Part shown: positions 8,654-39,450 of the stretch, in pieces | Position numbering within the stretch: position 1 is the first letter of the stretch | Layout of the letters: each line of letters begins with the position of its first letter | Assembly (NCBI GenBank): GCA_044432975.1 | Contig: JAWXUC010000002.1 | Coordinates: forward strand, 24,573 to 88,572 | From: Alphaproteobacteria bacterium | GTDB taxonomy: Bacteria; Pseudomonadota; Alphaproteobacteria; RF32; CAG-239 | Direction of reading: 5' to 3' | Length of the DNA: 64,000 nucleotides | Notes under the pieces: model-generated | What the model was told of the DNA's origin: nothing | Seen by the model: the letters and a program-made list of their open reading frames with translations, nothing else | Databases searched by the model: none | Program-made: the position numbers and the translations under genes

Positions 8654-8728
8654 TGGGCTGTCGCCAAGTGGTAAGGCACCGGTTTTTGGTATCGGCATTC
8701 GTTGGTTCGAATCCAGCCAGCCCAGCCA
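8654..8728 (+). tRNA. tRNA-Gln (anticodon UUG)
   Basis: Hand-folded cloverleaf. Acceptor TGGGCTG/CAGCCCA with the U1:A72 pair typical of tRNA-Gln. D-stem GCC/GGC. Anticodon stem CCGGT/ATCGG with loop TTTTGGT, giving anticodon TTG. T-arm GTTGG-TTCGAAT-CCAGC, discriminator G, encoded CCA. Confidence 0.8.
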
Positions 8729-10258: not shown

Positions 10259-10957
10259 TCAATCTTCTTGCCAAGAGGTTGGACGAGTTGCGATAATGTT
10301 ATCACTATCATCTTTTATAACATCATCAAATTGAGATAACCTCAAGGCTTTCATATCAATTTTTCTAATTACTTTACTTGTAAACTCTTGTATAAAGTCA
10401 TAACAAATATTTGAATGAGGACATAAAATTAAAATCTTTTTATTAAGTTGAGTTACAATTTTAATTGGCTCTAGTAAATCTGAATCATTTGTGACAATCA
10501 CAGCCATATCAAAATTATTTTGGCAAGCATCAAAGACTAAATGTGATGCTAAATTAACATCAGAACCTTTTTCTTCTGTTTTGATAACATTTGCAAATGT
10601 AATAGGATTTGTAACGGGGTGCAAAGGCATTGAAACTTTGTGTTTATAAAACTTGCCTTTGTGAATTGATAAATTTTCAATAGAGCTTAAAGCTTTGAAA
10701 TATTCTTGCTGTCTTATTGGGCTTTTATCGCCTTCAAACAAAGCTTGAACTTCTGCTGTATAAAAATTAATTGCTTCAAGAGAAAAGTCGCCTTTTAGAT
10801 AATAAGAAATTAAGGCTTCAACATTTAGCCACCTTACAGCTTTTTTTGATTGTTTAATTTTTTGCTTTACATCTTCAGGTATTGATGATTTAATTTTACC
10901 AGATTTTAATGCTCCATAAAATAAATTATATCCATCAATATATGCTCTTATTCTCAT
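10259..10957 (-). CDS. NYN/LabA-like (PIN-fold) domain protein
   Basis: MRIRAYIDGYNLFY N-terminus and the AVIVTNDSDLLE acidic motif are typical of the NYN/LabA nuclease-like domain. Confidence 0.65.
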   Translation of the reverse strand: MRIRAYIDGYNLFYGALKSGKIKSSIPEDVKQKIKQSKKAVRWLNVEALISYYLKGDFSLEAINFYTAEVQALFEGDKSPIRQQEYFKALSSIENLSIHKGKFYKHKVSMPLHPVTNPITFANVIKTEEKGSDVNLASHLVFDACQNNFDMAVIVTNDSDLLEPIKIVTQLNKKILILCPHSNICYDFIQEFTSKVIRKIDMKALRLSQFDDVIKDDSDNIIATRPTSWQED

Positions 10958-11732: not shown

Positions 11733-12335
11733 TTAATACCAATCAACACGAGCTAAATATCTTCTTAATGTTATTGTTTGAACGTCAAGGATTTTGGCGA
11801 TTTTGCGTTGAGATAGTCCTTTATCTAATAAATTCTTTATTTTTCTTGAGTTCTTAGCAAGTTTTAATTTTTTTGATTGTGCAGATAAGGGACGGCCTAG
11901 TTTTTTGCCGTTTGCTCTAACGCTATCTAATGAGGCCTTTGTGCGTTGAGAGATTAGGTTTCTTTCTATTTCTGCTGACAAACCAAATGCAAATGCCATC
12001 ACCTTGGATTGTATATCATTGCCTAAAGAATAATTTTCTTTGATTGTGATAATTTTGCAACCTTTAGACAAGCAATTTTCTAGTATTTTCATAACTTCTA
12101 GCAAAGAACGACCTAGCCTTGATATTTCTGTTGAGATTAACATATCGCCTTCTTGCAATTCTTCTAACAAAGTGCCTAGTTTTCTTTTATTTAATGATTT
12201 TCTTGAAGATATAGTTTCTTCAACCCAGCGATTTATTGTAATATTATTGGCTTTTGCATATTTTTTAATCTCAAATTTTTGATGTTCTGTTGTTTGTTTA
12301 TTGGAACTAACTCTAATATATCCCACAATTTGCAT
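11733..12335 (-). CDS. small serine recombinase (resolvase/invertase family; Hin/Gin/TnpR-like)
   Basis: 200 aa. MQIVGYIRVSSNKQ catalytic-serine N-terminus, the LISTEISRLGRS motif, and a C-terminal HTH (LSQRKIAKILDVQTITLRRY). Confidence 0.8.
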   Translation of the reverse strand: MQIVGYIRVSSNKQTTEHQKFEIKKYAKANNITINRWVEETISSRKSLNKRKLGTLLEELQEGDMLISTEISRLGRSLLEVMKILENCLSKGCKIITIKENYSLGNDIQSKVMAFAFGLSAEIERNLISQRTKASLDSVRANGKKLGRPLSAQSKKLKLAKNSRKIKNLLDKGLSQRKIAKILDVQTITLRRYLARVDWY

Positions 12336-12622: not shown

Positions 12623-15217
12623 ATGAAACTTTCAAAAACAGGAATTGTTGCTTTATCAAAGCAATATCGCTCTGTACTAAAAAAATGTTTTTTAATCAAC
12701 GCAGGTATTTTTATGTTTGCGGCACCAGCTATGGCTGCAGATACACAATTTATAGATACAAATGAAACTATAGAGCAATTAACTGGCACTTATGAAAAAT
12801 ACACAACTCCACAAGCATTTTATGGACAAGGCGGTGCTATTAGCAACTCAGGAACAATTAATAATGTAGAAGCAACTTTTTCAAACAATAGTGCAGTTTC
12901 TTCTACTAATATAGGCATGGGTGGTGCTATTTTTAATAATAACAAAATTGAAGAAATAAATTTAAGTACTTTTTCTAATAATGATTCAATTCTTGCTGGT
13001 GGTGCAATAACAAATACAGCAAACGGCAACATTGATAAAATTTCAAATTCAAAATTTAATAAGAATAAATCAATAACTGGTGGTGCAATTTATAATGCAG
13101 GAACAATCTCATTAATAGAAAAAGTAACATTATCTAGCAATGCTGCAATAAATGAAGGTGGTGCAATTTACTCAACAAATGGTCTTGATGTTGCTGACTC
13201 AAATTTTTCAACAAACTCTGCAAATTATGGTGGGTCGATTTCTGTTTATGGTGATAGTGCAAATATCTCTGGTTCAACTTTTAACGGAAACTTTACAAAC
13301 ACAACAAGTAATGAAGAATACTCTGAAGGAGGCGCGATTTATTCTGAAGCAGATGAATTAACTATTACTGACTCAACTTTTGAGAATAATAAAGCACTAA
13401 CTAATGATGGTTGGGGTGGTGCAATAAGCTCTTATAACAATACTGCAATCTCAAATTCAACATTTATAAACAACTCTGCAAATAATGCTGGAGCATTATC
13501 TTTGGCTGATAATGCTAGCATAAAAGGTTCAAAATTTACTGGCAACTCTGCAACCAATCAAGGAGGAGCAATTTTTTCATATGGCGCAACATTATCAATA
13601 AGCGACACTTTATTTGAATCAAATACAAGTAAAAAAATTGGTGGAGCTATTATGAATGATGGTAATTTAACATTAACAGATGTTACTTTTGATGGCAACT
13701 CTGCAAAATATGGTGGCGCTATTTATAATGAAGATGAAAGTTCTTTAACATTAAAAGGGACAACAACACTTGCAACTGCTACAGACACGATATACAATGC
13801 TTCTGATGCAAAAATTAATGTTTCTTCTGGTGCAAATCTTATAAATAACTCGATCATATCAAATAATGGAACATTTACATTTGAAAATGGTTCTTCTTAT
13901 GAATTTGCTTATGATTCTGGTTATGTTGATGGTACAATGACATTGAATGGAAATGTTAATCTAAGCACAATTATTGCAAACGGAACAGCTGATGGATCTT
14001 ATAAATTTGCAGAAGATATTAATGGTGATGGGACTTGGACTTTAGCAAAAAATAATCTTTATAACTTAAGCTTAAACAACACTTCAAATGAAGTTTCTAT
14101 AAAACTTAAATCATCTGATGATATTGCTACTTCTACTGGTGCAACAAACAATGCTGCAAGTGCTGTTTCTGCTGTTATTTCTGGTAGCGCAACAACTTCT
14201 AATGATGCTTTTAATGCTGTAGCAACATCAATCAATAATGGTTTACAATCTTCTGACGCAAGCGTTAGAGCTGCAGCTTTGAAAACAGTTGAACAAATGT
14301 CTTCAGACACAACATCTTCAGCTCAAAGTTCAACAGTAGCTAGTGCTAGTGCAACATTTGGTACAGTAGGAACACGTCTTTCTGGTGGTTCTGTAGCTTC
14401 TTCAACTTCTGGTATGAATTCTGGTGATTCTTATTTAGAAGGTGGTGCTGTTTGGGCTCAAACAATGATTAATACTGCATCATTAAGTGGTTCTAACGGT
14501 TTTGACTCAGATTCAAACGGTGTTGCATTTGGTGCTGAAAAACAAATTAATGATAATGTTAAAGCTGGTATTGGTTATGCTTATAGCAATACAGATATTG
14601 ACACATCTTCTCGTACTACAGACGCTGATACAAATACATTCTTTGTTTATGGTGAATACAAACCATCAAACTGGTATGTAAACGGTATTGCAAGTTATAG
14701 CTTTGCTTCTTATGATGAAAGCTCAAACACAAAAACATCTTCTTATGATGTAGATTCTTTTGGTTTGCAAGCTATGACTGGTTATGATATGACTGTTAAA
14801 AATGTAGATGTTACTCCAGAAGCAGGATTACGTTATGTTAAAGTTTCTCAAGATTCATATACAGATACTTTAGATTCTAAAATCTCTGGTGATGATTCTG
14901 ATATCTTAACTGCTGTTGTTGGTGCAAAAGCAGGTAAAACATTTGCTCTTGAAAATGGTTCAACATTACGTCCAGAAGTTAAAGCTGCTTTAACTTATGA
15001 CTTGTTTAATGATGATGCAAATTCTATTGTAACATTAGTAAACGGTTCTAGTTATACTACAAACGGTGAAGCTTTAGATAAATTCGGAATGGAATTTGGT
15101 GTTGGCTTTACAGCTGATGTTAATGAACAAGTTGAATTATCTTTAGGTTATGAAGGAAAATTCCGTTCAGACTACGAAGATCACACAGGAACATTAAATG
15201 TTAAATATAAATTTTAA
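12623..15217 (+). CDS. autotransporter outer-membrane protein with a Pmp-type (GGAI / FxxN) repeat passenger domain
   Basis: 864 aa. Extended signal peptide ending in AMA. At least 12 GGA[IL] plus FxxN repeats, as in Chlamydia polymorphic membrane proteins. Ser/Thr-rich linker. C-terminal beta-barrel domain ending …LNVKYKF with a terminal aromatic residue. Confidence 0.7.
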   Translation: MKLSKTGIVALSKQYRSVLKKCFLINAGIFMFAAPAMAADTQFIDTNETIEQLTGTYEKYTTPQAFYGQGGAISNSGTINNVEATFSNNSAVSSTNIGMGGAIFNNNKIEEINLSTFSNNDSILAGGAITNTANGNIDKISNSKFNKNKSITGGAIYNAGTISLIEKVTLSSNAAINEGGAIYSTNGLDVADSNFSTNSANYGGSISVYGDSANISGSTFNGNFTNTTSNEEYSEGGAIYSEADELTITDSTFENNKALTNDGWGGAISSYNNTAISNSTFINNSANNAGALSLADNASIKGSKFTGNSATNQGGAIFSYGATLSISDTLFESNTSKKIGGAIMNDGNLTLTDVTFDGNSAKYGGAIYNEDESSLTLKGTTTLATATDTIYNASDAKINVSSGANLINNSIISNNGTFTFENGSSYEFAYDSGYVDGTMTLNGNVNLSTIIANGTADGSYKFAEDINGDGTWTLAKNNLYNLSLNNTSNEVSIKLKSSDDIATSTGATNNAASAVSAVISGSATTSNDAFNAVATSINNGLQSSDASVRAAALKTVEQMSSDTTSSAQSSTVASASATFGTVGTRLSGGSVASSTSGMNSGDSYLEGGAVWAQTMINTASLSGSNGFDSDSNGVAFGAEKQINDNVKAGIGYAYSNTDIDTSSRTTDADTNTFFVYGEYKPSNWYVNGIASYSFASYDESSNTKTSSYDVDSFGLQAMTGYDMTVKNVDVTPEAGLRYVKVSQDSYTDTLDSKISGDDSDILTAVVGAKAGKTFALENGSTLRPEVKAALTYDLFNDDANSIVTLVNGSSYTTNGEALDKFGMEFGVGFTADVNEQVELSLGYEGKFRSDYEDHTGTLNVKYKF

Positions 15218-27862: not shown

Positions 27863-30583
27863 ATGGAACTTAACCAAGCAATTAAGTTAGTAAAATCAGG
27901 CGAGTTTAAAGAACTAGCCATTTTTGACTTATGGGAACTTACATCTGTTTTAGAAGCATCTAACTCAACAGATGCTCAAATAGCCCTTCAAGAAGTAAAT
28001 GGAGTTTATTCTCAATCTTATATGAAAGATGAAAACAAAAACTTTGGAGAAATTGTAAAAACAAACATAAAAGCAATAGAAGCTTTAAATTACAACCCAA
28101 TGTCAGATGTTGAAAATAAAGAAGTTCAAAGAATAAACAAAATTTTTAACAATATAGAAATAGAAAACACTCCTGATGCAGATTATGTTTCTCATCAAGA
28201 CTTTAAAGATTTTATGATAGAAGTTTCAGATTTAGAAGCTCAAGAAGTTTTATTAAAAAACAAAAACTTTGCTCAATTAGATAAAACAGAACAAAAAAAG
28301 GCTTATAACAACGCTTTCTTTTCTTCAATACAAGCAAACTTAGTTACTTTGGTTAGCAACACTTTTCGCCCTAAAAACTTGCAAGAGGCAAACGAGCTAT
28401 CAAAAGAAGCTATGTCTGGCTTAGTAAATGCCAACAAAAAATTCAAAGTTACAAATACAAACGCTATTGCTATTATTAACAATGCTTATAAAAGAACAAA
28501 AACCTTTGCAGATAACTTAGCTAAAAAAACAGGCATTTCTTGGTTGGCCCAAAAGGTTAAAGCTTTTGATAAAAAAGCTTCAGAAAAATTCCCAACATCA
28601 TGGGGATTATTAAAAACATTTGGCACATCTTATGGTGCAATGGTATTTGGTGGTCCCGTTGGTATTGCAGCTTTAAGTGGATACAATTTATACAAAACAA
28701 CCAAAGCTATAAATAAAGAAGCTCAAGCCAACAATAAAAACTTCTTCCAACAAGTATTTAGCAAACCAAGTACTGCAATTTCATTTAGTATTGCAATTGC
28801 AGGTACAGCATTAACAGGTTATTCTGCATTTTCATCTGGCTTTAACTATGGTTTAATAGAAAAAGCTTTTGATGGTAAAGCTATAGAAGGAGTTAAAACT
28901 TTAGGAGCTAATTTAAGCACATTTAACTTTGATGCATTAAAAAACACAGATTTTTGGAAAAGAACTGCAGTAATGTCTTCAGGTTCATTAGCTGTTATTT
29001 CAGAAGAAGTTTATGGAGCATTAAATACTAAAGATAAAAAAGAAAGAAAAGCTAGATGGAAAAAAGTACAAGCTGTTGCCTTAACATCTATAGCAGGTAT
29101 TGGACTTGGTGCAACAACAAACGCCTTAATGTCAGAAGCAACCGTTGCTACAAATACAGACACAAATACAGATATTAATACAGACACAAAGCAACCTGCA
29201 ACCCCAGAACCTGTTGCAACAACTGAATTAAATACAGAAAGAAAATTCAACTTCTTCGATAAATTTATTTCTGGAGATAATAATAACAATTCTCAAGAAT
29301 TCAAAGTTGTTGCAGATAACACTCAAGATACAACTCAAACCACAGAACCTGTTGCAACAACTGAATTAAATACAGAAAGAAAATTCAGCTTCTTCGATAA
29401 ATTTATTTCTGGAGATAATAATAACAATTCTCAAGAATTCAAAATTGTTGCAGATGATGTTCAAAATACAAATCAAACATCAGATGTTGTTACAACAGAA
29501 GCATCTCAAGATGTTTCAGATTTCATTAAAGACACACACAGAAGCTATAGTGCAGATGAATTTAGAGACAGCCATAGAATTATGAACATGTGGGTTGAAA
29601 AAGACAACTTAAACTCTGTAATAAGCAACTTGCAAGAAGCCGGCTTAACAGAAGCTGAAGCATATAGATATGCTCACAATGCAGCTATTTGTGGTTCTCA
29701 AACAACAGATAGCATTTCACAAGCAGCTCCTAGTTATGAAGGCGAATTTGATGCAAGCAGACAAACTTGTGGCAGAACAGCTTCTAACGGATATCACACA
29801 TTATGGGGTGGCAAAGCCCTTGTTGATGCTGGTTTAACATTAGATGCCAGAAACACATTAGCAGGATCTGTTAACTTCCATACAGGTGAGGTTATTATCT
29901 CTCAAGAAGCTATGACAGCTTTTAGAGACTTTGACGCCAGATTAATTGACAATGGTGTTATTGACACAGGCGCATTAGTTAATGCCAACGCAAGTGATTG
30001 CAACCATTTATCAGGAAACACTCGTATAAATGAACATGGTCAATCTGTTTTAGGCAGCAATGGTGGAAACCGTTTTTCATCTTATGCCACAACAGATGTT
30101 AAACCAACACCAGTAGCAACTCCAGAACCTGTTATAGTTCCTGAAAAAGTTGTTGAACCAGTTGTAATACCAAAGCCAATAATTAATGAGCCAATTGTTT
30201 TTCCAGAAAGACTTGTAATTCCAGAACCTATTATAATTCCAGATCCTGTTGTTGCTCCAGAACCTATTATAACTCCAGATCCTGTAGTTGAACCAAGAGC
30301 TAACAGCGGACACTATGACAACTATGAAGATTTGTTAAGACAAGTAGGCATAGATCCCGCAACAGAAACTCCACTTGATTCAACAGAATTAAAAGATATC
30401 TTAAATTCAAATGGTGGACACTCAAGTGATTTGAACTCATTAAATTCTACAGAAAACACTCAATCAAATCATTATGATAGCAAACAAGATTTGTTAGAAC
30501 AAATGAACATAGAGCCTGCTGAAGAAGAAAAACCATTAACAGCAAGACAATTAAGAAGAATGTTAAGACAATCTTCAAGATAA
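27863..30583 (+). CDS. large repeat-containing hypothetical protein; putative secreted or effector protein
   Basis: About 906 aa from the RBS-supported ATG; the track ORF begins at 27800. Four Gly/Ala-rich hydrophobic segments. A 46-aa tandem duplication (TEPVATTELNTERKF[NS]FFDKFISGDNNNNSQEFK). A Pro-rich PEPV/PDPV region. No signal peptide. Confidence 0.5.
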   Translation: MELNQAIKLVKSGEFKELAIFDLWELTSVLEASNSTDAQIALQEVNGVYSQSYMKDENKNFGEIVKTNIKAIEALNYNPMSDVENKEVQRINKIFNNIEIENTPDADYVSHQDFKDFMIEVSDLEAQEVLLKNKNFAQLDKTEQKKAYNNAFFSSIQANLVTLVSNTFRPKNLQEANELSKEAMSGLVNANKKFKVTNTNAIAIINNAYKRTKTFADNLAKKTGISWLAQKVKAFDKKASEKFPTSWGLLKTFGTSYGAMVFGGPVGIAALSGYNLYKTTKAINKEAQANNKNFFQQVFSKPSTAISFSIAIAGTALTGYSAFSSGFNYGLIEKAFDGKAIEGVKTLGANLSTFNFDALKNTDFWKRTAVMSSGSLAVISEEVYGALNTKDKKERKARWKKVQAVALTSIAGIGLGATTNALMSEATVATNTDTNTDINTDTKQPATPEPVATTELNTERKFNFFDKFISGDNNNNSQEFKVVADNTQDTTQTTEPVATTELNTERKFSFFDKFISGDNNNNSQEFKIVADDVQNTNQTSDVVTTEASQDVSDFIKDTHRSYSADEFRDSHRIMNMWVEKDNLNSVISNLQEAGLTEAEAYRYAHNAAICGSQTTDSISQAAPSYEGEFDASRQTCGRTASNGYHTLWGGKALVDAGLTLDARNTLAGSVNFHTGEVIISQEAMTAFRDFDARLIDNGVIDTGALVNANASDCNHLSGNTRINEHGQSVLGSNGGNRFSSYATTDVKPTPVATPEPVIVPEKVVEPVVIPKPIINEPIVFPERLVIPEPIIIPDPVVAPEPIITPDPVVEPRANSGHYDNYEDLLRQVGIDPATETPLDSTELKDILNSNGGHSSDLNSLNSTENTQSNHYDSKQDLLEQMNIEPAEEEKPLTARQLRRMLRQSSR
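29207..29454 (+). repeat. intragenic tandem duplication (about 110 bp near-identical, 138-bp period, 2 copies)
   Basis: gaacctgttgcaacaactgaattaaatacagaaagaaaattca… repeated at 29207 and 29345. Confidence 0.7.
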
Positions 30584-30630: not shown

Positions 30631-30822
30631 CCAAACGTCATTGCGAGCGAAGCGTGGCAATCCAGTTAAACAATACATTCGTATAAAAAAACAGGTGTTT
30701 TTTTTTACACTTTTCAATGTAGAACGGGGCCGGGGGCGACGTTTCGCCCTTGCTCCCGCCTCAAAGCACTACAAAAGGAGGCACCCCAAACGTCATTGCG
30801 AGCGAAGCGTGGCAATCCAGTT
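30631..30822. repeat. two direct copies of a 40-bp RPE-like palindromic element flanking a GC-rich spacer
   Basis: ccaaacgtcattgcgagcgaagcgtggcaatccagttaaa at 30631 and again at 30784. The spacer between them is GC-rich (gggccgggggcgacgtttcgcccttgctcccgcc). Confidence 0.7.
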
Positions 30823-32061: not shown

Positions 32062-32499
32062 ATGAAAACATATTATATCGTTAGTGGTGGCTTTGACCCA
32101 ATCCATGAAGGGCACATAGCCATGATATTAGAGTCGGCTCAAAAATCAGATGGTGTTATTGTGTTGGTTAACTCCGATGATTGGCTAGCTCGCAAAAAAG
32201 GAAAAGGTTTTCAAACATACAAGACCAGAAGTTGTATCTGTTCTGCCTTAAAAGGTGTTATTGATGTTATAGATTTTGATGATTTTGACAATTCAGCCTC
32301 TGATGGCATAAGAAAGGCAAGAGAAAAATATCCTGATGCCAAATTAGTTTTTGCCAACGGTGGCGATAGAGGCAAAGACAATATCAGAGAAGATGATGTT
32401 TGCAAAGAATGTAATGTATCTTTAGAATTTGGTGTTGGCGGAGATTTCAAAGCCAATTCATCATCTTGGATATTAAAAGAATGGTACAAGGAAGACTAA
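32062..32499 (+). CDS. cytidylyltransferase-like nucleotidyltransferase; probably D-beta-D-heptose-1-phosphate adenylyltransferase (HldE domain II-like)
   Basis: VSGGFDPIHEGHIAMI (HxGH) and the blocks VIVLVNSDDWLARKKGKG and VFANGGDRGKDNI parallel RfaE/HldE domain II. Confidence 0.6.
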   Translation: MKTYYIVSGGFDPIHEGHIAMILESAQKSDGVIVLVNSDDWLARKKGKGFQTYKTRSCICSALKGVIDVIDFDDFDNSASDGIRKAREKYPDAKLVFANGGDRGKDNIREDDVCKECNVSLEFGVGGDFKANSSSWILKEWYKED

Positions 32500-33701
32500 T
32501 GCCTATAAAACTACTTTTTGACATGGAACAATTATCAATAGCTGGCACCAAAGGTACTGGTGTCGTTAGGATTGCAAAAGAATTGCTTTTTAAATTAGCT
32601 AACAATCCAGATATTGACTTATATCCTCTTGTTACCACAAAACGTGGCGATGTTATAAAATATTTAGAATATGCAAATTTGACTAATTTAAAAGACAAGA
32701 TTGTCTATATGACAAAGCTAAAAAACACTACAAAATCTACAAGTATCAAAAAAAGAATAAAGTCAAAAATCAGTAGCTTTATAAACTTTAATAAATACAA
32801 CAAACAATTATCAAATTTTGATGCTTATTTTTCTATTTTCAGTCCAATTTCGCCAATTGTTTATAAAAGCAATATAAAAACTTATATGTTTATACATGAT
32901 TTAATTCCTATTTTTCATCCAGAATTTTGCGATGCAAAATTTGTAACTAAATATACATCTAGGATGAAAGATATTGATGCAGACACAATCTTTTGCAATT
33001 CAGAATATACCAAGCAAGATTTATTAAAATTTCGCCCAGATTTAATTTCAAAAAACATAGACGTTGCTTATTTGGCTGCAGATGAGAAGTTTCAGCCAAT
33101 TACAGATGTTAAAACCTTAAAAAATGTAAAAGAAAAATATAATATAAAAACCGATAAATATTTTTTAGGTGTTTCTGAGCTTTCAACCAGAAAAAACTTT
33201 ATACACCTATTGCAATCATACATTAACTTTTTAAGAAAAACAAAAGCAGAAGATATCTCTTTGGTTTTGGTAGGGCCAATCAGAAAAGGCTTTAAAGATA
33301 TAACAAAAGCTATTAATAACTTTGAAGAATACAAAGAAAAAATAATTTGCACAGGCTTTGCCGATGACCAAGACATGGCACCTTTATATTCAGGAGCTTT
33401 AGCCTTTTGTTACCCAAGCTTATATGAAGGTTTTGGCTTACCAATATTAGAAGCAATGCAATGCGAAACACCTGTTATCTCTGCAGACAACAGCTCTCTA
33501 CCTGAAGTAGGCGGCGATGCAGTTATCTATATAACAGGAAAAGACGAAGAAGAAACCTCAACCAAACTAACAGAAATCTACACCAACAAAAACTTAAGAG
33601 AAAACCTATCAAAAAAATCCCAAACCCAATCCCAAAACTTCAGCTGGGATAAATTCAACAATCAAATTTGTAATGTTATGATAAAGGAAATAAAAAAATG
33701 A
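32499..33701 (+). CDS. glycosyltransferase family 1 (GT4-type)
   Basis: EGFGLPILEAMQCETPVIS (the EX7E motif). Start set at the ATG at 32499, which has a TAATG overlap with the upstream gene; the track ORF begins at 32466. Confidence 0.7.
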   Translation: MPIKLLFDMEQLSIAGTKGTGVVRIAKELLFKLANNPDIDLYPLVTTKRGDVIKYLEYANLTNLKDKIVYMTKLKNTTKSTSIKKRIKSKISSFINFNKYNKQLSNFDAYFSIFSPISPIVYKSNIKTYMFIHDLIPIFHPEFCDAKFVTKYTSRMKDIDADTIFCNSEYTKQDLLKFRPDLISKNIDVAYLAADEKFQPITDVKTLKNVKEKYNIKTDKYFLGVSELSTRKNFIHLLQSYINFLRKTKAEDISLVLVGPIRKGFKDITKAINNFEEYKEKIICTGFADDQDMAPLYSGALAFCYPSLYEGFGLPILEAMQCETPVISADNSSLPEVGGDAVIYITGKDEEETSTKLTEIYTNKNLRENLSKKSQTQSQNFSWDKFNNQICNVMIKEIKK

Positions 33702-34675
33702 AAACACCAATTTTATTTTTAACATGGATAAGACCAGATGTTACAGCAGAAGTTTTTTCTCAAATCAGAAAAGCAAAACCTGAAAGACTATATATTGCAC
33801 AAGATGGACCGAGGTGCGAAGAAGAAAGAACTTTAATGATGCAAACAAGAGATGTTATTAAAGTTGATTGGGATTGTGAAGTTAAATACCTTCATAGAGA
33901 AGAAAATTTAGGCTGCAAAAGAGGTGTTAGTGAAGCTATAACATGGTTTTTTGAACAAGAAGAAATGGGAATTATTTTAGAAGATGATTGCTATCCCGAC
34001 ATGTCATTTTTTCCATTTTGCGAAGAACTTTTAGAAAAATATAAAGATGATACAAGAGTTATGCATATTTGTGGAAGACCAGATATAAAATATTTCAACA
34101 AAAGAGATATTAGTGAACGCAGTTATTATTATACTAAAATATTAGGTTGCTGGGGTTGGGCTTCATGGCGAAGAGCTTGGCAATATTTTGATATAAATAT
34201 GTCAAATTTTAATGATTTTGTAAAAGAGAGTGCTATTGATAAGTTTTTACCTTGCGATCCAAATATAAATCGTTATTTGGAAATATTTAAATCACATTCC
34301 ACTGGAAAAGAAAAAGGCTGGGCATGGATTTATGCTTATAGCTTACTTTGTCAAAATGCTTTATGTATAAGATCCTCTAAAGTTTTAATTAACAACATAG
34401 GTGTAAACCATGAAATTTCAACACATAAACATTCAGGTGCTGCTGACGTTATTTACAAAAAAGAAGTTGCAGAATTTCCTTTAATTCACCCAAATTTCAT
34501 GGTTGCTGAAAATTACATCAACCAAAAAGAACTAAATAAAAAAACTTTATTAAAAAAAGAGGTGTTATCAAATGGACGGGTTAAATTTTATTTATTTGGT
34601 AAAAGGATTTACTCATACAAAACAAAAAACACTAAAATATTAAATCAAAAAATAGAGCTTATTAATTTAGATTAA
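33698..34675 (+). CDS. putative glycosyltransferase (GT-A-like); ends with the cluster's recurrent YLFGxxI.SYK motif
   Basis: ATGA overlap with the upstream GT. An ILEDDCYP acidic motif. C-terminal …NGRVKFYLFGKRIYSYKTKNTK. Confidence 0.35.
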   Translation: MKTPILFLTWIRPDVTAEVFSQIRKAKPERLYIAQDGPRCEEERTLMMQTRDVIKVDWDCEVKYLHREENLGCKRGVSEAITWFFEQEEMGIILEDDCYPDMSFFPFCEELLEKYKDDTRVMHICGRPDIKYFNKRDISERSYYYTKILGCWGWASWRRAWQYFDINMSNFNDFVKESAIDKFLPCDPNINRYLEIFKSHSTGKEKGWAWIYAYSLLCQNALCIRSSKVLINNIGVNHEISTHKHSGAADVIYKKEVAEFPLIHPNFMVAENYINQKELNKKTLLKKEVLSNGRVKFYLFGKRIYSYKTKNTKILNQKIELINLD

Positions 34676-34688
34676 TAAAGGAAGTAAA

Positions 34689-35567
34689 ATGTTAGACAAT
34701 AAAAAAATTATAGTTTCTTTAACATCATATCCAGCAAGAATAAAAACAGTGCACAAAACAATAGAAACACTACTTGCACAGTCTCAAAAAGCAGATATGA
34801 TTATATTAAACTTAGGAGAAGATAAATTTATCAATAAAGAAGATGATTTACCTTCAGAATTGGTTAAATTAACAACACAAGGATTAACTATTAATTGGTG
34901 TAAGGATATTGGACCTTTTACAAAATTAATTCCAACATTAAAAAAATATCCTAAAGCTGTTATAATAACAGCTGATGATGATATTCTTTATAATAAAAAC
35001 TGGTTAAAAAAATTATACAACTCTTACTTAAAAGAACCTAATTTAATTCATTGTCATAGAGCACATCTTGTATTATTTGACAAACAAAATAATATTAGAC
35101 CTTATCAAGAATGGACACATGAACAAACAAAAAGCTCAACATCTTTTAATAATTTTTTAACAGGCGTTGGCGGAGTTTTATATCCTCCAAACTGTTTTTA
35201 TAAAGATATTTTTAAAGAAGATATTTTTATGCAACTAACCCCAAATGCTGATGATATTTGGTTTTGGGCTATGGCACTTTTAAATGACACAAAAATAAAA
35301 ATAATTAAAAATAAAATCATAAAATTAAAATACATCAAAAATTCACAAAAAATATCCTTATACCACCAAAACCTATTGCAAAACAAAAATGACGCTAAAC
35401 TACAAGCTGTAATTAATTATTACCCCCAAATAAAAGATAAACTAGAGATAATAACAAAAGTTAATAAGAAAATAAAACTTTTCAAAAAAGAAAAATCACC
35501 AAACGGTGGGGGAGTATTTTATTTATTCGGAATAAAAATTTTAAGCTATAAAAAAAGGGGAAACTAA
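34689..35567 (+). CDS. putative glycosyltransferase; C-terminal recurrent motif
   Basis: N-terminal IVSLTSYPARI and ADDDI. C-terminal …KSPNGGGVFYLFGIKILSYKKRGN. Confidence 0.4.
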   Translation: MLDNKKIIVSLTSYPARIKTVHKTIETLLAQSQKADMIILNLGEDKFINKEDDLPSELVKLTTQGLTINWCKDIGPFTKLIPTLKKYPKAVIITADDDILYNKNWLKKLYNSYLKEPNLIHCHRAHLVLFDKQNNIRPYQEWTHEQTKSSTSFNNFLTGVGGVLYPPNCFYKDIFKEDIFMQLTPNADDIWFWAMALLNDTKIKIIKNKIIKLKYIKNSQKISLYHQNLLQNKNDAKLQAVINYYPQIKDKLEIITKVNKKIKLFKKEKSPNGGGVFYLFGIKILSYKKRGN

Positions 35568-36347
35568 ATGAAAATATTCAAAAAAATAAAATCAGCAAAC
35601 GGCAGAAGAAAAATTTATTTATTAGGAATAAAAATTTTAAGCTATAAAAATAAAAAAAATATTAAATTTTGTCCTATTTGTAATAATGAAAATACATTTA
35701 ATGGATTTGGCACAGTCTTAAGAAAAGATGCTATGTGTCCTGTATGTCGTTCATTGGAACGACATAGATTTTTATTTTTTATATATAATTTATTTTTCTT
35801 GCAAACTACAAGAAAAATAAAGGTGTTACATATTGCACCTGAAAAAGCAATATATGATATGATAATAAAGAATTCTAATATAGAATATCATCATATTGAT
35901 ATAGATCCATCTCAATACCCATATGCTTTGGGATGCAAACAAATGAATGCTTTAAATTTACAATTTAAAGATGAAACTTTTGATTTTATTATTCACAACC
36001 AAGTTATCGAACATATTGTTGATGAACAAAAATTTATTAATGAACAATTAAGAGTGTTAAAAGATAATGGTAAAATAATTGTAAATCTTCCATATAAAAG
36101 TGATTTGGAAAAAACTTTTCAAGATGATAACATAAAAACTGATGAAGATAGATTGAAATATTATTTACAAAAAGATCACGTTAGACTTTATGGACTTAAT
36201 ATGTTAGAAAACTTAAAAGGTGTAAATATAGAGAGAATTTTTGAAGACTTTATGACTACAAAATTAATTAATGAAATGCAATTAAAAAGAAATTTTATAG
36301 ATTTAGAAGATGCATATTTTTTAATCACAAAAAAAGAAAGGAAATAA
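35568..36347 (+). CDS. class I SAM-dependent methyltransferase with an N-terminal recurrent motif
   Basis: N-terminal MKIFKKIKSANGRRKIYLLGIKILSYKNKK. The methyltransferase core …FDFIIHNQVIEHIVD… is homologous to the C-terminal domain of 36349-37818. Confidence 0.6.
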   Translation: MKIFKKIKSANGRRKIYLLGIKILSYKNKKNIKFCPICNNENTFNGFGTVLRKDAMCPVCRSLERHRFLFFIYNLFFLQTTRKIKVLHIAPEKAIYDMIIKNSNIEYHHIDIDPSQYPYALGCKQMNALNLQFKDETFDFIIHNQVIEHIVDEQKFINEQLRVLKDNGKIIVNLPYKSDLEKTFQDDNIKTDEDRLKYYLQKDHVRLYGLNMLENLKGVNIERIFEDFMTTKLINEMQLKRNFIDLEDAYFLITKKERK

Positions 36348-36348
36348 A

Positions 36349-37818
36349 ATGAAAATAAGTTTAATTATACCTGTTTACAATGCATTAGAGGATGTAAAAA
36401 AATGCTTAAATAGTATATGTGAAAACTATAATAAATCTTATGAATTTATTATAGTTGACGACTCTTCTGATAACATAACTAGTGACTATCTCAAAAATTT
36501 TGCAAAAGAAAATAATTTTGTAAAATTATACAGAAATAAAGAAAATCTTGGTTTTGTTAAGACATGTAATTTTGCAATTAATAAAGCAAAAGGAGATATT
36601 GTTGTTTTATTAAATTCAGACACAATTATACCTTCAATGTTTGCAGAAAAAATTATAGATGCTTTTAATAAAAATGAAAAAGCAGGAATTGCATGTCCTA
36701 TTCCTAGTAGTAGTGGTCATTTTAGTTTAGAAATGCCTAAAAATTTTACTGTAGAGAAAATGAATAAATTAATTAACAAAAGACATACTCAATACCCCAA
36801 ACTTCCTTCATGCAATGGGTTTTGTTTTTGTATTAAACGAGAAGTTATTAACTCTATTGGTTACTTAGATGAGATCTATGGAAAAGGTTATGGGGAAGAA
36901 ATTGATTATTCATATAAAGCAATAGTTAATAAATTTGATTGTATCCTAATAGATAATTTATATGTTTTTCATAAAAGACATGCTTCTTTTGGAAATCAAA
37001 GAGATAAATTAAGCTTAAAAGGTAGCGAAATATTAAGAGAACATTGGGGAGATTTCTCTGAAGAATGGATAAAAGAAAATAAATATGTTAATCCAGTTTC
37101 TAAAATTGAGAAAAAAATATTCATTTCAAGAAAAACGTTTTTAACAAAAATAAAAAAAGAAAATGGTAGAAGAATAATTTATTTATTTGGAATTAAAATA
37201 TTAAGCTATAAGAAAAAAGTTAAACCCAAAAAGTATATTCCTTTAATAAAAAAAGAAGGCAAAAGATGGTTGGAAATTGGTCCTGGAAATGAAAGAATAG
37301 AAGGATTTGAAGGCTTAAACATTGTTAAAAACAATGCAACTGATTATATTGCCGATGTTGCAAAAGATGGAATTCCTTTTATAAATGAAAGTTTTGATTT
37401 AGTTTATTCATCTCATTTTCTTGAACATATAGAATGGTATAAAACTAAAGATGTTATTATAGAGATGTATAGAGTATTAAAAAAAGGTGGACATGTAGAA
37501 ATTCACGTTCCTGATGGATTAAAAATAGCAAAAGCTTTTGTTGATGCTGAAATGAAAAATTCTAAAGATTTTCATAAAGATAATTGGTGGAAATTTAATG
37601 ATGACAAAGATCCTTGCATTTGGGCAAGTGGTAAAACTTTTACATATGGAGATGGGAATGTAATTAAAGGACATTGGAATTCTCATTTAGCAATGTTTTC
37701 TTATAGATATTTAGAAAAACTATTAAAAGAAATTGGTTTTAAAAACATTAAGAAGTTAGACAAACCAAGAGGACATAACCACGGCTGGATTAACTTAGGA
37801 ATTAGCGGTGAAAAATAA
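36349..37818 (+). CDS. bifunctional GT2 glycosyltransferase / methyltransferase fusion, joined through the recurrent motif
   Basis: N-terminal GT2 domain (ISLIIPVYNALEDV…IIVDDSSDN). Linker …KENGRRIIYLFGIKILSYKKKV…. C-terminal methyltransferase (…FDLVYSSHFLEHIEW…). Confidence 0.65.
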   Translation: MKISLIIPVYNALEDVKKCLNSICENYNKSYEFIIVDDSSDNITSDYLKNFAKENNFVKLYRNKENLGFVKTCNFAINKAKGDIVVLLNSDTIIPSMFAEKIIDAFNKNEKAGIACPIPSSSGHFSLEMPKNFTVEKMNKLINKRHTQYPKLPSCNGFCFCIKREVINSIGYLDEIYGKGYGEEIDYSYKAIVNKFDCILIDNLYVFHKRHASFGNQRDKLSLKGSEILREHWGDFSEEWIKENKYVNPVSKIEKKIFISRKTFLTKIKKENGRRIIYLFGIKILSYKKKVKPKKYIPLIKKEGKRWLEIGPGNERIEGFEGLNIVKNNATDYIADVAKDGIPFINESFDLVYSSHFLEHIEWYKTKDVIIEMYRVLKKGGHVEIHVPDGLKIAKAFVDAEMKNSKDFHKDNWWKFNDDKDPCIWASGKTFTYGDGNVIKGHWNSHLAMFSYRYLEKLLKEIGFKNIKKLDKPRGHNHGWINLGISGEK

Positions 37819-37828
37819 ACTAAAATCC

Positions 37829-37862
37829 AACCTCCGCTTAAATAATTAAGCGGAGGTTTTTT
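37829..37862 (+). terminator. rho-independent terminator ending the glycan cluster
   Basis: cctccgcttaa/ttaagcggagg stem followed by a T8 tract. Confidence 0.7.
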
Positions 37863-38015
37863 ATTTTATTCCAAATGATAAAAAAAAGTCACTCCTCAAA
37901 TTATAGCAACAATTTGATTAGGAGTCTTCCTTTGAAAAATAAAAATTGAAGATTCCTAATCATTGCTTCGCAATGAGGAATGACTTTTTTCTCATATTTT
38001 AGGAAATCATTCTTA

Positions 38016-38309
38016 TTATTTAGGATACTTTTCCTTTATTTCGGTGATTTTTTCTTGCCACAGGTTTGTTTCATTAACCTTGTCCCAATACATCATGTCT
38101 AATTGCTCATTAAGGGTAGGGTATTCTAACACTCTTTTTTCAGCATACGTTGGTTCAGGAGCAATAGGCGCATAGCCAGACAAATAAAACTTCCCATCAT
38201 ATCCTTGCTCAACTTCAACATAATCAATCCCTTGCTTTTCTGCCACAATTTGATTTAATATCTGATATTCCTTAGTCTCTTCATTTATTAATTTCGCTCT
38301 TATTAACAT
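38016..38309 (-). CDS. small protein downstream-coupled to the tail-fibre-like gene; possible fibre assembly or chaperone partner
   Basis: 97 aa with a 1-nt overlap with the upstream gene. No recognisable motif. The function is inferred from context only. Confidence 0.3.
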   Translation of the reverse strand: MLIRAKLINEETKEYQILNQIVAEKQGIDYVEVEQGYDGKFYLSGYAPIAPEPTYAEKRVLEYPTLNEQLDMMYWDKVNETNLWQEKITEIKEKYPK

Positions 38310-39244
38310 TAATTAACTCCTTTCAATGGATAAACCTTTACACCACCTTGAGAAAACGTTATAACATCACCAACATCACAATAAACATGACAATTGGCTT
38401 TTGCATAATTATTATTCCCATAAACATCCCTGTTTAAATATCCAACATCCACACCATTAACATATACATTACCAGTCGATCCAGCATGGTTACCAATACC
38501 CACAACAAAACAAATCTCAGTACAAACATACCCCGTACTTATACTAACACCTGCGCTATAATCAGGAACAATCCAATTAACAACCTCTGCCTTTCCATCA
38601 TCAGAAATATTATCCATATCAACAGATGCTATGGTTTCTAAATTATCAGAAATTTCTTGCACTTTTTCTGTCGCCAACTCTGCTTTTTCTGTCGCAATTT
38701 CTGCTTTTTCTGTTGCAACTTCAGCTGCTACTACAGCCGTTTCTTTAGCCTCTAAAAGAACTGTCCCCAATGTATTAACCTCAACAACAGAATTCTCCAA
38801 ACGTGTGCCATCAGCATTCCAAATAAGAGATTTTCCAGCCTTTGGACTTGGCAAAGTTAAGTCAACATCTGTTGATGTCGCATAAGGAGGATAAATCATC
38901 GCTCTGCTTAAGTCATCATTCAAATCTTGAATACACGCCATTTGATAATCAAACTCATAATTCAATGTCGAAGCCCTTAACGCTCCGCCTTCCTGAAACT
39001 GCGTTGTCCGCTCTATCGGAATATTTCTCATTATAGTAACAACAACACCGCTTTGAGGGGCGGTGTTAAAAGTTATAGTCGCTTGCGTGTCATCATTTAA
39101 GACAACACTATAATTATCTGATGATATTAGTTCATCATCAAAATATATTTCCACCCCATCATCAATAAAAATCTCAAACGGAGTCTCATATTCAGTATTT
39201 TCACCATTAGAAACATACTGAATTCTTGATTCTTCACTACTCAT
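38309..39244 (-). CDS. phage tail-fibre-like protein
   Basis: 311 aa. N-terminal shaft-attachment-like region, a heptad coiled-coil (AVVAAEVATEKAEIATEKAELATEKVQEIS), and a C-terminal Gly/Tyr/Asn-rich beta domain (…GNVYVNGVDVGYLNRDVYGNNNY…). Confidence 0.5.
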   Translation of the reverse strand: MSSEESRIQYVSNGENTEYETPFEIFIDDGVEIYFDDELISSDNYSVVLNDDTQATITFNTAPQSGVVVTIMRNIPIERTTQFQEGGALRASTLNYEFDYQMACIQDLNDDLSRAMIYPPYATSTDVDLTLPSPKAGKSLIWNADGTRLENSVVEVNTLGTVLLEAKETAVVAAEVATEKAEIATEKAELATEKVQEISDNLETIASVDMDNISDDGKAEVVNWIVPDYSAGVSISTGYVCTEICFVVGIGNHAGSTGNVYVNGVDVGYLNRDVYGNNNYAKANCHVYCDVGDVITFSQGGVKVYPLKGVN

Positions 39245-39417
39245 ATTTTTTCCTTTATTTTAAAATAAAAAAAAGCCCTGCAAAAGCAGAGCTTAAAGCC
39301 AAAAAAGATATAATAATCCCTTTGACTAACTATAAAATGACAAAAACAACCCAAAAAGTCAAGCCCTTTTATCCATCATGTTAATAACTCCCCCAACCAA
39401 AGCGCAATCCCCCCCCC

Positions 39418-39450
39418 AACGTCATTGCGAGCGAAGCGCGGCAATCCAGA
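39418..39450. repeat. RPE-like palindromic element preceded by a C9 homopolymer
   Basis: ccccccccc at 39409-39417, then caacgtcattgcgagcgaagcgcggcaatccag. Confidence 0.65.

Follow-up and report, generated by a model that had tools for sequence, protein, structure and literature searches.

A lineage-wide pair of fibre and partner genes with a podovirus-type anchor at the end of variable glycan clusters in gut Alphaproteobacteria

The stretch of DNA considered here, referred to as the window, comprises 64,000 nucleotides from an Alphaproteobacteria bacterium of the GTDB lineage RF32; CAG-239 (assembly GCA_044432975.1, contig JAWXUC010000002.1, positions 24,573 to 88,572). It contains two genes on the minus strand that encode a 311-aa tail-fibre-like protein, the fibre, and a 97-aa protein, its partner. 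An earlier note on this DNA regarded the pair as an orphan of phage origin, possibly domesticated as an adhesin or as the receptor-binding module of a contractile particle. From the comparison of related genomes, the pair is a conserved host module of gut Alphaproteobacteria and not a stray prophage leftover. The reading that we favour, at a probability of about 0.4, is that the host encodes here a receptor-binding fibre, matched to a glycan, that is carried by a podovirus-like particle with genes elsewhere.

With regard to its distribution, a protein search recovered 29 homologues of the fibre (306-449 aa), and a scan of one genome per species located 58 loci in 54 assemblies, species-representative metagenome-assembled genomes (MAGs) nearly all of which belong to uncultured Alphaproteobacteria from human, ruminant and other guts, so that the pair can no longer be called an orphan. 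The genes of these loci were called and clustered, and the large clusters were labelled with Pfam, the rest of the approximately 1 Mb being classified by clustering alone. A partner homologue directly follows the fibre gene, adjacent to it or overlapping it, in 41 of 63 loci, and in 42 of the 48 loci with enough sequence the gene that comes next runs convergently. Among the six genes downstream, at least one belongs to a glycan family in 37 of 48 loci and at least two do so in 31, against 6 and 3 of 49 loci, respectively, when the same count is made upstream (families counted: GT2, GT4, epimerase/dehydratase, DegT aminotransferase, UDP-galactopyranose mutase, nucleotidyl-/cytidylyltransferase and acetyltransferase). 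On the downstream side the glycan cluster is a constant companion, whereas the upstream flank varies by species: it carries pgeF in the window and, in other genomes, a Na/H exchanger, S8 peptidases or uvrC. The cluster, which had been taken as mere background, is thus the defining neighbour of the pair. Given the synteny, the conservation of the partner and the downstream linkage to glycan genes, the pair is not debris; it is a constant element that stands at the end of a glycan cluster of variable content. Virion genes beyond the fibre module were not found in scans of selected genes from the related loci, the remainder of which were only clustered, and the gene-cluster maps of the loci contain no recurrent third gene that could act as a docking partner for the anchor. 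Four of the loci (L058-L061) had appeared phage-like by their co-directional unknown genes; this was rejected, as their neighbours are Dus, TrkA, HflX and major facilitator superfamily (MFS) genes.

The fibre consists of three parts. On sequence grounds, its N-terminal region is the particle anchor of podovirus receptor-binding proteins: residues 5-112 match Pfam PF03906 (Phage_T7_tail) with 31.5 bits (gathering score 25.2), and matches to PHROG tail families reach 1e-12 (PHROG 1640 at 1.5e-12). When run against the PDB, the profile of the family finds solved podophage tailspikes by their N-termini (6e-18 for Dpo31/Dpo36, 6e-13 for orf22 of 9efk), and chains with the name 'Tail fiber protein' match it weakly (E 0.3-0.4). 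Phages in GenBank and contigs in IMG/VR have the anchor domain alone in common with the fibre, at 27-41% identity, and related anchors in phages head fibres or spikes within modules of portal, scaffold, capsid, nozzle, spike and terminase genes. It is from the domain match and this podoviral setting that the assignment follows; in phages, N-terminal domains of the T7 gp17 type dock the fibre onto the tail. Purifying selection on the anchor is strong, with 19 residues invariant across the 29 homologues and a ratio of nonsynonymous to synonymous substitution rates (dN/dS) of 0.03-0.15.

The anchor is followed by an Ala-rich stalk, which contains three perfect heptads ATEKAE[I/L]; in the DNA these correspond to a tandem repeat with a 21-nt unit, present in 2.9 copies at 38662-38720 (TRF), and the heptad sequence singled out in the earlier note, AEVATEKAEIATEKAELATEKV, is present in the protein. 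The length of the stalk among the homologues is mostly 53, 60, 67 or 74 residues and so changes by 7 residues, or one heptad, at a time, which together with a weak match to Alanine_zipper (E 0.017) fits a coiled coil, probably a trimeric one. The C-terminal knob is hypervariable. An AlphaFold2 (AF2) model predicts for it a C1q/TNF-like jelly roll that resembles trimeric heads, including that of a lactococcal phage receptor-binding protein; tblastn searches for the knob in phages gave no match, and neither did comparison of its sequence with beta-helical depolymerases and solved fibre tips. The proposed architecture of attachment region, heptad stalk and knob is supported by the PF03906 match, the heptads and the tip model, with the podophage tailspike N-termini as the profile result and the trimer as the probable state. 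Neither the fibre nor its partner has a hydrophobic N-terminal signal sequence visible by eye, a predictor not having been used, which fits assembly in the cytoplasm. At NCBI, the fibre is annotated as 'phage tail fiber protein' and its partner as 'hypothetical'; neither matched NCBIfam, and no PADLOC model matched them or three neighbouring proteins.

The partner has a variable N-terminal beta half and a near-invariant C-terminal helical half, and is modelled as a beta sheet with three helices. Its C-terminal motif, PEPTYAEKR..EYP..EQLDM.YWDKVN.TNLWQEKITEIK.KYPK, is invariant over 45 residues and defines a module that belongs to a large uncharacterised family (PHROGs 9114, 1787 and 2687; 3,177 representatives at 50% clustering). 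Homologues were examined in three phages and are encoded there directly 3' of genes of the fibre region: gp18 of MEP301 after the 'putative tail fiber' gp19, gp47 of HTVC131P after gp46, and a 126-aa protein in S-T4. Neither Pfam nor the PDB gave a match to a described chaperone family (Caudo_TAP, Phage_tail_APC, IMC-like). In the window, the stop codon TAA of the fibre gene and the start codon ATG of the partner gene have a single A in common (TAATG on the minus strand), and both reading frames, with their 1-nt overlap, lie where the earlier note had placed them. Across the lineage, loci with similar knobs tend to have similar partners (identities compared by Mantel test, rho 0.43, p 0.0002). 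Its position, the translational coupling and this co-variation with the tip support a tip-specific assembly factor, as had been supposed from the place of the small gene, and the partner most likely folds or caps the fibre tip. The most divergent, longer fibres are followed by another protein of 165-247 aa (L058:12146-12889, L059:2103-2612 and L061:5846-6343), for which PHROG gives matches to families of the 'tail fiber / tail protein' class (phrog_2837, 3e-25); a different phage fibre-associated protein can thus take the place of the second gene of the module.

The comparison of loci also reveals how the fibre evolves. Three loci (L005, L006 and L031) have, in an exchange pattern that includes two loci of a single MAG beside different glycan clusters, anchors that are 92-94% identical, knobs of 28-31% identity and partners of 55-63%, and two others (L022 and L042) carry the same type of tip (81% identity, dN/dS 0.07) on anchors of only 67% identity. 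The hypervariability of the tip thus arises by replacement and not by drift: the anchor is constant, and the tip is swapped along with its partner as one cassette, to a weak extent in concert with the glycan genes. Accordingly, knob identity correlates weakly with glycan gene content (Mantel rho 0.17, p 0.04), which is not the case for anchor identity (rho 0.04, p 0.33). Four assemblies contain two loci each, and in one of them (the JAZQUH MAG) both loci adjoin glycan clusters of unlike gene content. The genome of the window also appears to hold a second pair, about 100 proteins away from MFI3241347.1/MFI3241348.1, with MFI3241447.1 (P0002) as its fibre; MFI3241447.1 and MFI3241348.1 lie on one contig of 183,192 bp. 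This second fibre is 69% identical to that of the window in the anchor and 38% in the knob, and where it occurs elsewhere (L001) it adjoins a different glycan cluster.

The cluster of the window comprises six genes, for a cytidylyltransferase-like protein, a GT4, two unknowns, a methyltransferase and a GT2-methyltransferase (Pfam), and runs convergently towards the pair; an equivalent cluster lies downstream of the pair in the relatives. A hydropathy scan, which is crude and includes some clusters that run off the end of the locus, detected no protein with at least four transmembrane (TM) segments in 37 of 40 clusters, and the six genes of the window are among these. Without such proteins the clusters would lack Wzx, Wzy, ABC-2 permeases and initiating phosphoglycosyl transferases, which suggests that they are gene sets of the lipooligosaccharide (LOS) type or for protein glycosylation, and not loci for export of capsule or O-antigen. 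Some contain Maf-like proteins (MptE-like, a faint precomputed Pfam match) and CMP-sugar synthetase genes, a combination typical of flagellin O-glycosylation. Several clusters start with a small Xre-type helix-turn-helix (HTH) gene (gene cluster c14; L005:13610-15146 and the ends of L024, L031 and L053), and the cluster boundary in L005 additionally carries a sigma-70-r4/HTH protein and a resolvase; these boundary genes may be regulators or serve cassette recombination.

In most loci, the fibre gene is preceded by a near-consensus promoter of the form TTGAC-17-(TGn)TATAAT, followed about 21 nt past the -10 box, at fixed spacing, by a conserved core GGnAnnnGT(G/C/A)TATC. Within the main clade, the core folds into a hairpin of 8 bp, the loop of which is invariant, and is followed by a U-run (examples at L005:6021-6066, L024:9879-9924 and L042:9862-9907, with about 20 further loci). 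In 21 distinct leader sequences, 97% of the cells pair and compensatory changes are present in 5 of the 8 pairs; covariation scores 0.508, as compared with 0.25 for shuffles (0 of 500 as high) and at most 0.19 for slid controls. According to a covariance model (R1), the element occurs only upstream of fibre genes in the approximately 1 Mb of these genomes. Two of three motif matches in JGI metagenomes are true, both upstream of fibre homologues, and no other class of gene was found under the leader there, in a search of low power. In IMG/VR, the motif pattern gave 58 matches, a number that chance can explain, and the covariance model accepts none of them; Rfam 15 gave no match for the leader at the gathering score (tRNAs only), permissive scans returning noise far below the cut-offs. 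A second terminator-like hairpin, judged by eye, stands just before the ribosome-binding site (RBS) in most of the loci inspected. The window, L001 and L013 form a subfamily that has kept the promoter, the spacing, the core and the second hairpin and is without the 3' arm of the first; the copy in the window is a degenerate variant that R1 does not detect. By analogy with known late-gene control, transcription must probably pass one or two terminator-like hairpins, which would make expression conditional on read-through or antitermination.

Taken together, these observations can be arranged into a mechanism. Transcription of the fibre would start at the near-consensus promoter and be gated by terminator read-through or antitermination. 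The constant anchor would dock the fibre onto a phage-derived particle, which could be a podovirus-like gene transfer agent (GTA), a defective phage, or a resident or infecting podophage; the variable beta half of the partner would contact the variable tip, with the invariant helical half as a common core; and particles made by a cell would target cells that display the same glycan. A fibre borne on a particle is favoured because, to our knowledge, docking by a T7-type anchor is known for podovirus tails only, and because the agent RcGTA of Rhodobacter capsulatus offers a precedent. As a possible but more speculative extension, one or more cassettes of glycan cluster, tip and chaperone on a constant anchor would give gut Alphaproteobacteria kin-directed delivery, switched via the new leader; the particles would be produced in the cell or merely pass through it, and the glycan locus of the producer would set their range of targets. 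A bolder variant has the export-less glycosyltransferase cluster glycosylating the fibre itself.

Several observations weigh against a particle-borne fibre matched to its glycan cluster. Particle genes were seen neither in the 64-kb window nor within 10 kb on either side of the 58 related loci, and no phage in IMG/VR or GenBank has an anchor closer than about 41% identity, nor is a matching chassis on record. We know of no T7-type anchors in GTAs of the RcGTA type, which are siphovirus-like. The coupling between knob and glycan genes is weak, the glycan itself may not be a classical surface polymer given the missing export genes in 37 of 40 loci, and the leader of the window is without the first hairpin.

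A tract of nine C residues (C9) next to the locus had been proposed as a slipped-strand switch. It is real and is the only C or G run of at least 7 in the 64 kb, and lies about 47 nt upstream of the -35-like box, outside both the promoter spacer and the reading frame. It abuts one copy of a 28-nt dispersed repeat resembling repetitive extragenic palindromes (REP-like); what had been called an 'RPE-like element' is this repeat, which has three copies in the window, one other of which is preceded by C4. Two Logan assemblies from other sequencing runs (L147 and L148) are 100% identical to the window over 8,653 and 2,843 nt, including the tract, the length of which does not vary across these two independent assemblies. 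Both break off at 39448, within the copy at 39420-39447 or immediately beside it; the other end of L147, at 30796, falls inside the copy at 30791, and that of L148, at 36606, is away from the repeats. Among the relatives, no C/G tract is visible in the approximately 130 nt upstream of the fibre gene, the equivalent position lying beyond that view at about 165-175 nt. No support for a slipped-strand switch was seen. The 8.65-kb stretch between two of the repeat copies holds ychF, the glycan cluster, the partner gene and the fibre gene.

Among the alternatives, the fibre might be the protein substrate of the adjacent glycosylation genes, a glycosylated trimeric fibre comparable to BclA or Mimivirus fibrils whose sugar coat and tip are swapped together and which is displayed on a cell, a vesicle or a particle. 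Such a role would account for clusters composed of soluble glycosyltransferases and sugar-nucleotide enzymes with neither multi-pass membrane nor export proteins in most loci, for the Maf-like and CMP-sugar synthetase genes in some of them, for a stalk rich in Ser and Thr repeats, and for the presence of one fibre per glycan cluster even in genomes with two. We nevertheless consider it rather unlikely, as no signal peptide or other export signal is visible and a route to the cell surface is thus missing, the strongly conserved phage anchor is left unexplained, and soluble transferases also assemble glycans of the LOS type, for which Wzx and Wzy are likewise absent, so that missing export genes are not specific. 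A further alternative is an anti-phage function, in which the host fibre would compete for the tail sites of an infecting podophage, yielding mis-armed progeny, or, released on lysis, would mask the receptor of kin. A conserved anchor of the podovirus type where resident tail genes are not in view, the tie to a hypervariable glycan locus, which is the usual phage receptor, and a terminator-gated expression that could respond to infection are all in line with this, and free RcGTA fibre protein, when added, blocks adsorption (PMC5026251). Even so, this function is improbable: PADLOC returned no match for either protein, no phage with a closely matching anchor is known, masking of a receptor needs no anchor, and a tip that binds the host's own glycan would aid the phage.

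The pair could also be an inert remnant of the tailspike-plus-seroconversion end of a temperate podophage, kept by its linkage to glycan genes. Tailspike genes adjoin O-antigen-modifying genes at the ends of P22-like prophages, E. coli retains cryptic stf/tfa pairs, and a resolvase is present at one cluster boundary (L005). Reading frames that are intact in 54 species, the low dN/dS of the anchor, the conserved translational coupling, the dedicated promoter and leader and the paralogous loci within genomes all speak against inertness, and this explanation, highly improbable, is already disfavoured. The least credence is given to the proposals of the earlier note, namely that the fibre serves an extracellular contractile injection system (eCIS) or tailocin with genes elsewhere, or that it is an adhesin made phase-variable by the C9 tract. 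The fibre-like architecture, the non-prophage context and a tract that is unusual for a genome of 31% G+C speak in their favour. The anchor, however, is of the podovirus type and unlike contractile baseplate anchors, eCIS or tailocin genes were seen neither nearby nor in the approximately 1 Mb of related loci (selected scans and clustering gave no sheath, tube or baseplate gene in any locus), and the place of the tract beside a REP-like repeat, its identical length in two other assemblies and the upstream regions of the relatives, as far as they are in view, argue against a switch. A host-encoded fibre for a podovirus-like particle therefore remains the reading that we prefer.

The features of the window are compiled in Table 1. 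Scans for protein families were made with 26 of its larger open reading frames (ORFs), the window holding 57 of at least 100 aa, about half of which were thus unscanned. On one side, the pair is flanked by the glycan cluster and, on the other, by genes for a PgeF-type Cu-oxidase_4, a DUF2497 protein (PopZ-like, just under the Pfam threshold) and TolC/OEP, so that the neighbours had been correctly named. No match to capsid, portal, terminase, sheath or baseplate proteins was obtained among the 26 ORFs, which are of the chromosomal housekeeping type (ClpA/B-like, glycogen phosphorylase, PriA, porin, autotransporter and similar). A prophage context was rejected on these grounds: the scanned flanks, of 38 kb and 25 kb, carry housekeeping genes, no integrase, lysis, packaging or other virion genes turned up there that would place the locus within a larger prophage, intact or decaying, and the non-prophage setting and the frame of domestication are upheld. 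The palindromes had been thought to flank the pair as elements; they consist of a terminator and the inverted repeat TGATTAGGAGTCTTC/GAAGATTCCTAATCA, which is real, and do not bound a mobile unit.

Table 1. Features of the fibre locus and its surroundings, with positions given in the window
Feature	Position	Strand	Remarks
Fibre gene, 311 aa	38309..39244	-	Stop codon 38309-38311; ORF list, Pfam, PHROG, homologues
N-terminal particle-anchor domain, T7 gp17 / tailspike-adapter type, ~residues 1-160	38765..39244	-	Pfam, PHROG, PDB profile
Ala-rich heptad stalk, ~residues 161-212	38609..38764	-	Sequence, TRF, Alanine_zipper
Conserved hinge (DMDNIS..GK) and hypervariable C-terminal knob ending YPLKG	38312..38608	-	
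Partner gene, 97 aa	38016..38309	-	Overlaps fibre gene by 1 nt
Promoter and leader	39245..39362	-	TTGACT -35-like 39357-39362; TGT-CATTTT 39334-39342 (alternative TATAGT 39329-39334)
Leader core GGGATTATTATATC	39307-39320	-	Conserved with L001 and L013
Terminator-like hairpin before RBS	39273-39294	-	Terminator scan
RBS AAGGA	39251-39255	-	Leader sequence
Convergent six-gene glycan cluster	32062..37818	+	Pfam
Bidirectional intrinsic terminator	37829..37858		13-bp perfect stem, T-runs on both strands, between convergent operons
15-nt inverted repeat 3' of partner gene	37915-37929 / 37948-37962		93% complementary, 18-nt loop
C9 (G9 on coding strand)	39409..39417		Adjoins locus, probably outside it
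28-nt REP-like repeat CGTCATTGCGAGCGAAGCGYGGCAATCC	30636-30663, 30791-30818, 39420-39447	+	Three copies, 0 expected by chance

Some other genes of the window deserve mention. An ORF of 927 aa with a TTG start (27800-30583, plus strand), between dxs and the REP-like copies, has no match in Pfam, NCBIfam or PADLOC and no meaningful one in PHROG. A tRNA at 8654-8725 is accompanied by two ORFs on the minus strand (10259-10957 and 11733-12335), which encode a DNA invertase/resolvase of the serine recombinase type (PHROG 125, 3e-46) and a phage-family protein (phrog_7929, 7e-44); these may be the remnant of a small mobile element, lie about 26 kb from the fibre gene and are without obvious connection to its locus. 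Finally, an 864-aa autotransporter with repeats of the Chlamydia PMP type (12623-15217, plus strand) is a candidate for a conventional surface adhesin.

In the literature searched, no description was found of the lineage-wide module, its fixed tie to export-less glycan clusters, the evolution of tip cassettes on a constant anchor or the leader. The latter is a new element, supported by covariation and specific to fibre genes. If the favoured reading holds, the module would represent a second case, unrelated to RcGTA, of phage receptor-binding genes tied to the genes of their presumed target glycan, set in an uncultured gut lineage and with a podovirus-type anchor. It would then become testable how the specificity of receptor-binding proteins and the type of surface glycan stay matched through recombination, whether gut Alphaproteobacteria harbour unrecognised GTA-like or phage-hijacking systems, and which role the widespread family of small 'EYP..QLDM.YWD...KYPK' proteins plays in phages. 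Even without a particle, a strongly conserved phage anchor in a phage-free context calls for an explanation.

Among known systems, the fibre is comparable to T7 gp17, the Klebsiella phage proteins Dpo31/Dpo36 and MEP301 gp22, with which it has in common a homologous anchor, an exchangeable distal part and a small gene downstream. It differs from these T7-type proteins in being chromosomal, with no portal, capsid, adaptor, nozzle or terminase nearby among the scanned genes, in its knob, predicted as a jelly roll of about 95 aa on a short heptad stalk (the comparison with gp17 being one of sequence and not of tip structure), in its conservation across a bacterial lineage under purifying selection, and in having its own sigma-70-type promoter and terminator leader. 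The partner recalls Tfa/Caudo_TAP of lambda and the 'caps' of Alteromonas phages (V22 gp27 and A5 gp9), separately encoded fibre chaperones as proposed for the latter (PMC10579305): the gene is likewise small and directly 3' of the fibre, and the product co-varies with the tip and has predicted beta strands and a helical body. It matches, however, no chaperone family in Pfam or the PDB and, by its C-terminal motif, forms an uncharacterised family of its own. As for the leader, the PR'-tR' late control of lambda also combines a strong promoter, a conserved element at fixed spacing within the initially transcribed region and one or two intrinsic terminators before a virion gene; here, in contrast, no Q-like gene was identified and the element is a hairpin loop in most loci.

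Outside phages, the exosporium fibre BclA of Bacillus, the gene of which adjoins glycosylation genes, similarly has an N-terminal anchor, a repetitive trimeric stalk of variable length and a C1q-like knob, although the stalk here is a heptad helix and not collagen, the anchor is that of a phage, and the host is Gram-negative with no visible export route. The closest layout is that of the receptor-binding loci of RcGTA, the head spikes rcc01079/rcc01080 and the tail fibre rcc00171. The likeness concerns genomic layout only, as RcGTA is siphovirus-like with a known structural GTA cluster, rcc01079/80 are reported to have no conserved domains, and the glycan clusters described here are without export genes. 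These loci are chromosomal, away from the structural cluster and beside polysaccharide genes; they include a two-gene locus that needs both genes, and evolve fast with horizontal exchange (PMC5026251). Both adjoin genes for capsule or exopolysaccharide (EPS), with which one of them is co-regulated (PMC5026251). The same arrangement of chromosomal fibre genes beside glycan genes is found in the gut lineage, where, by analogy, the glycan may act as the receptor of the fibre.

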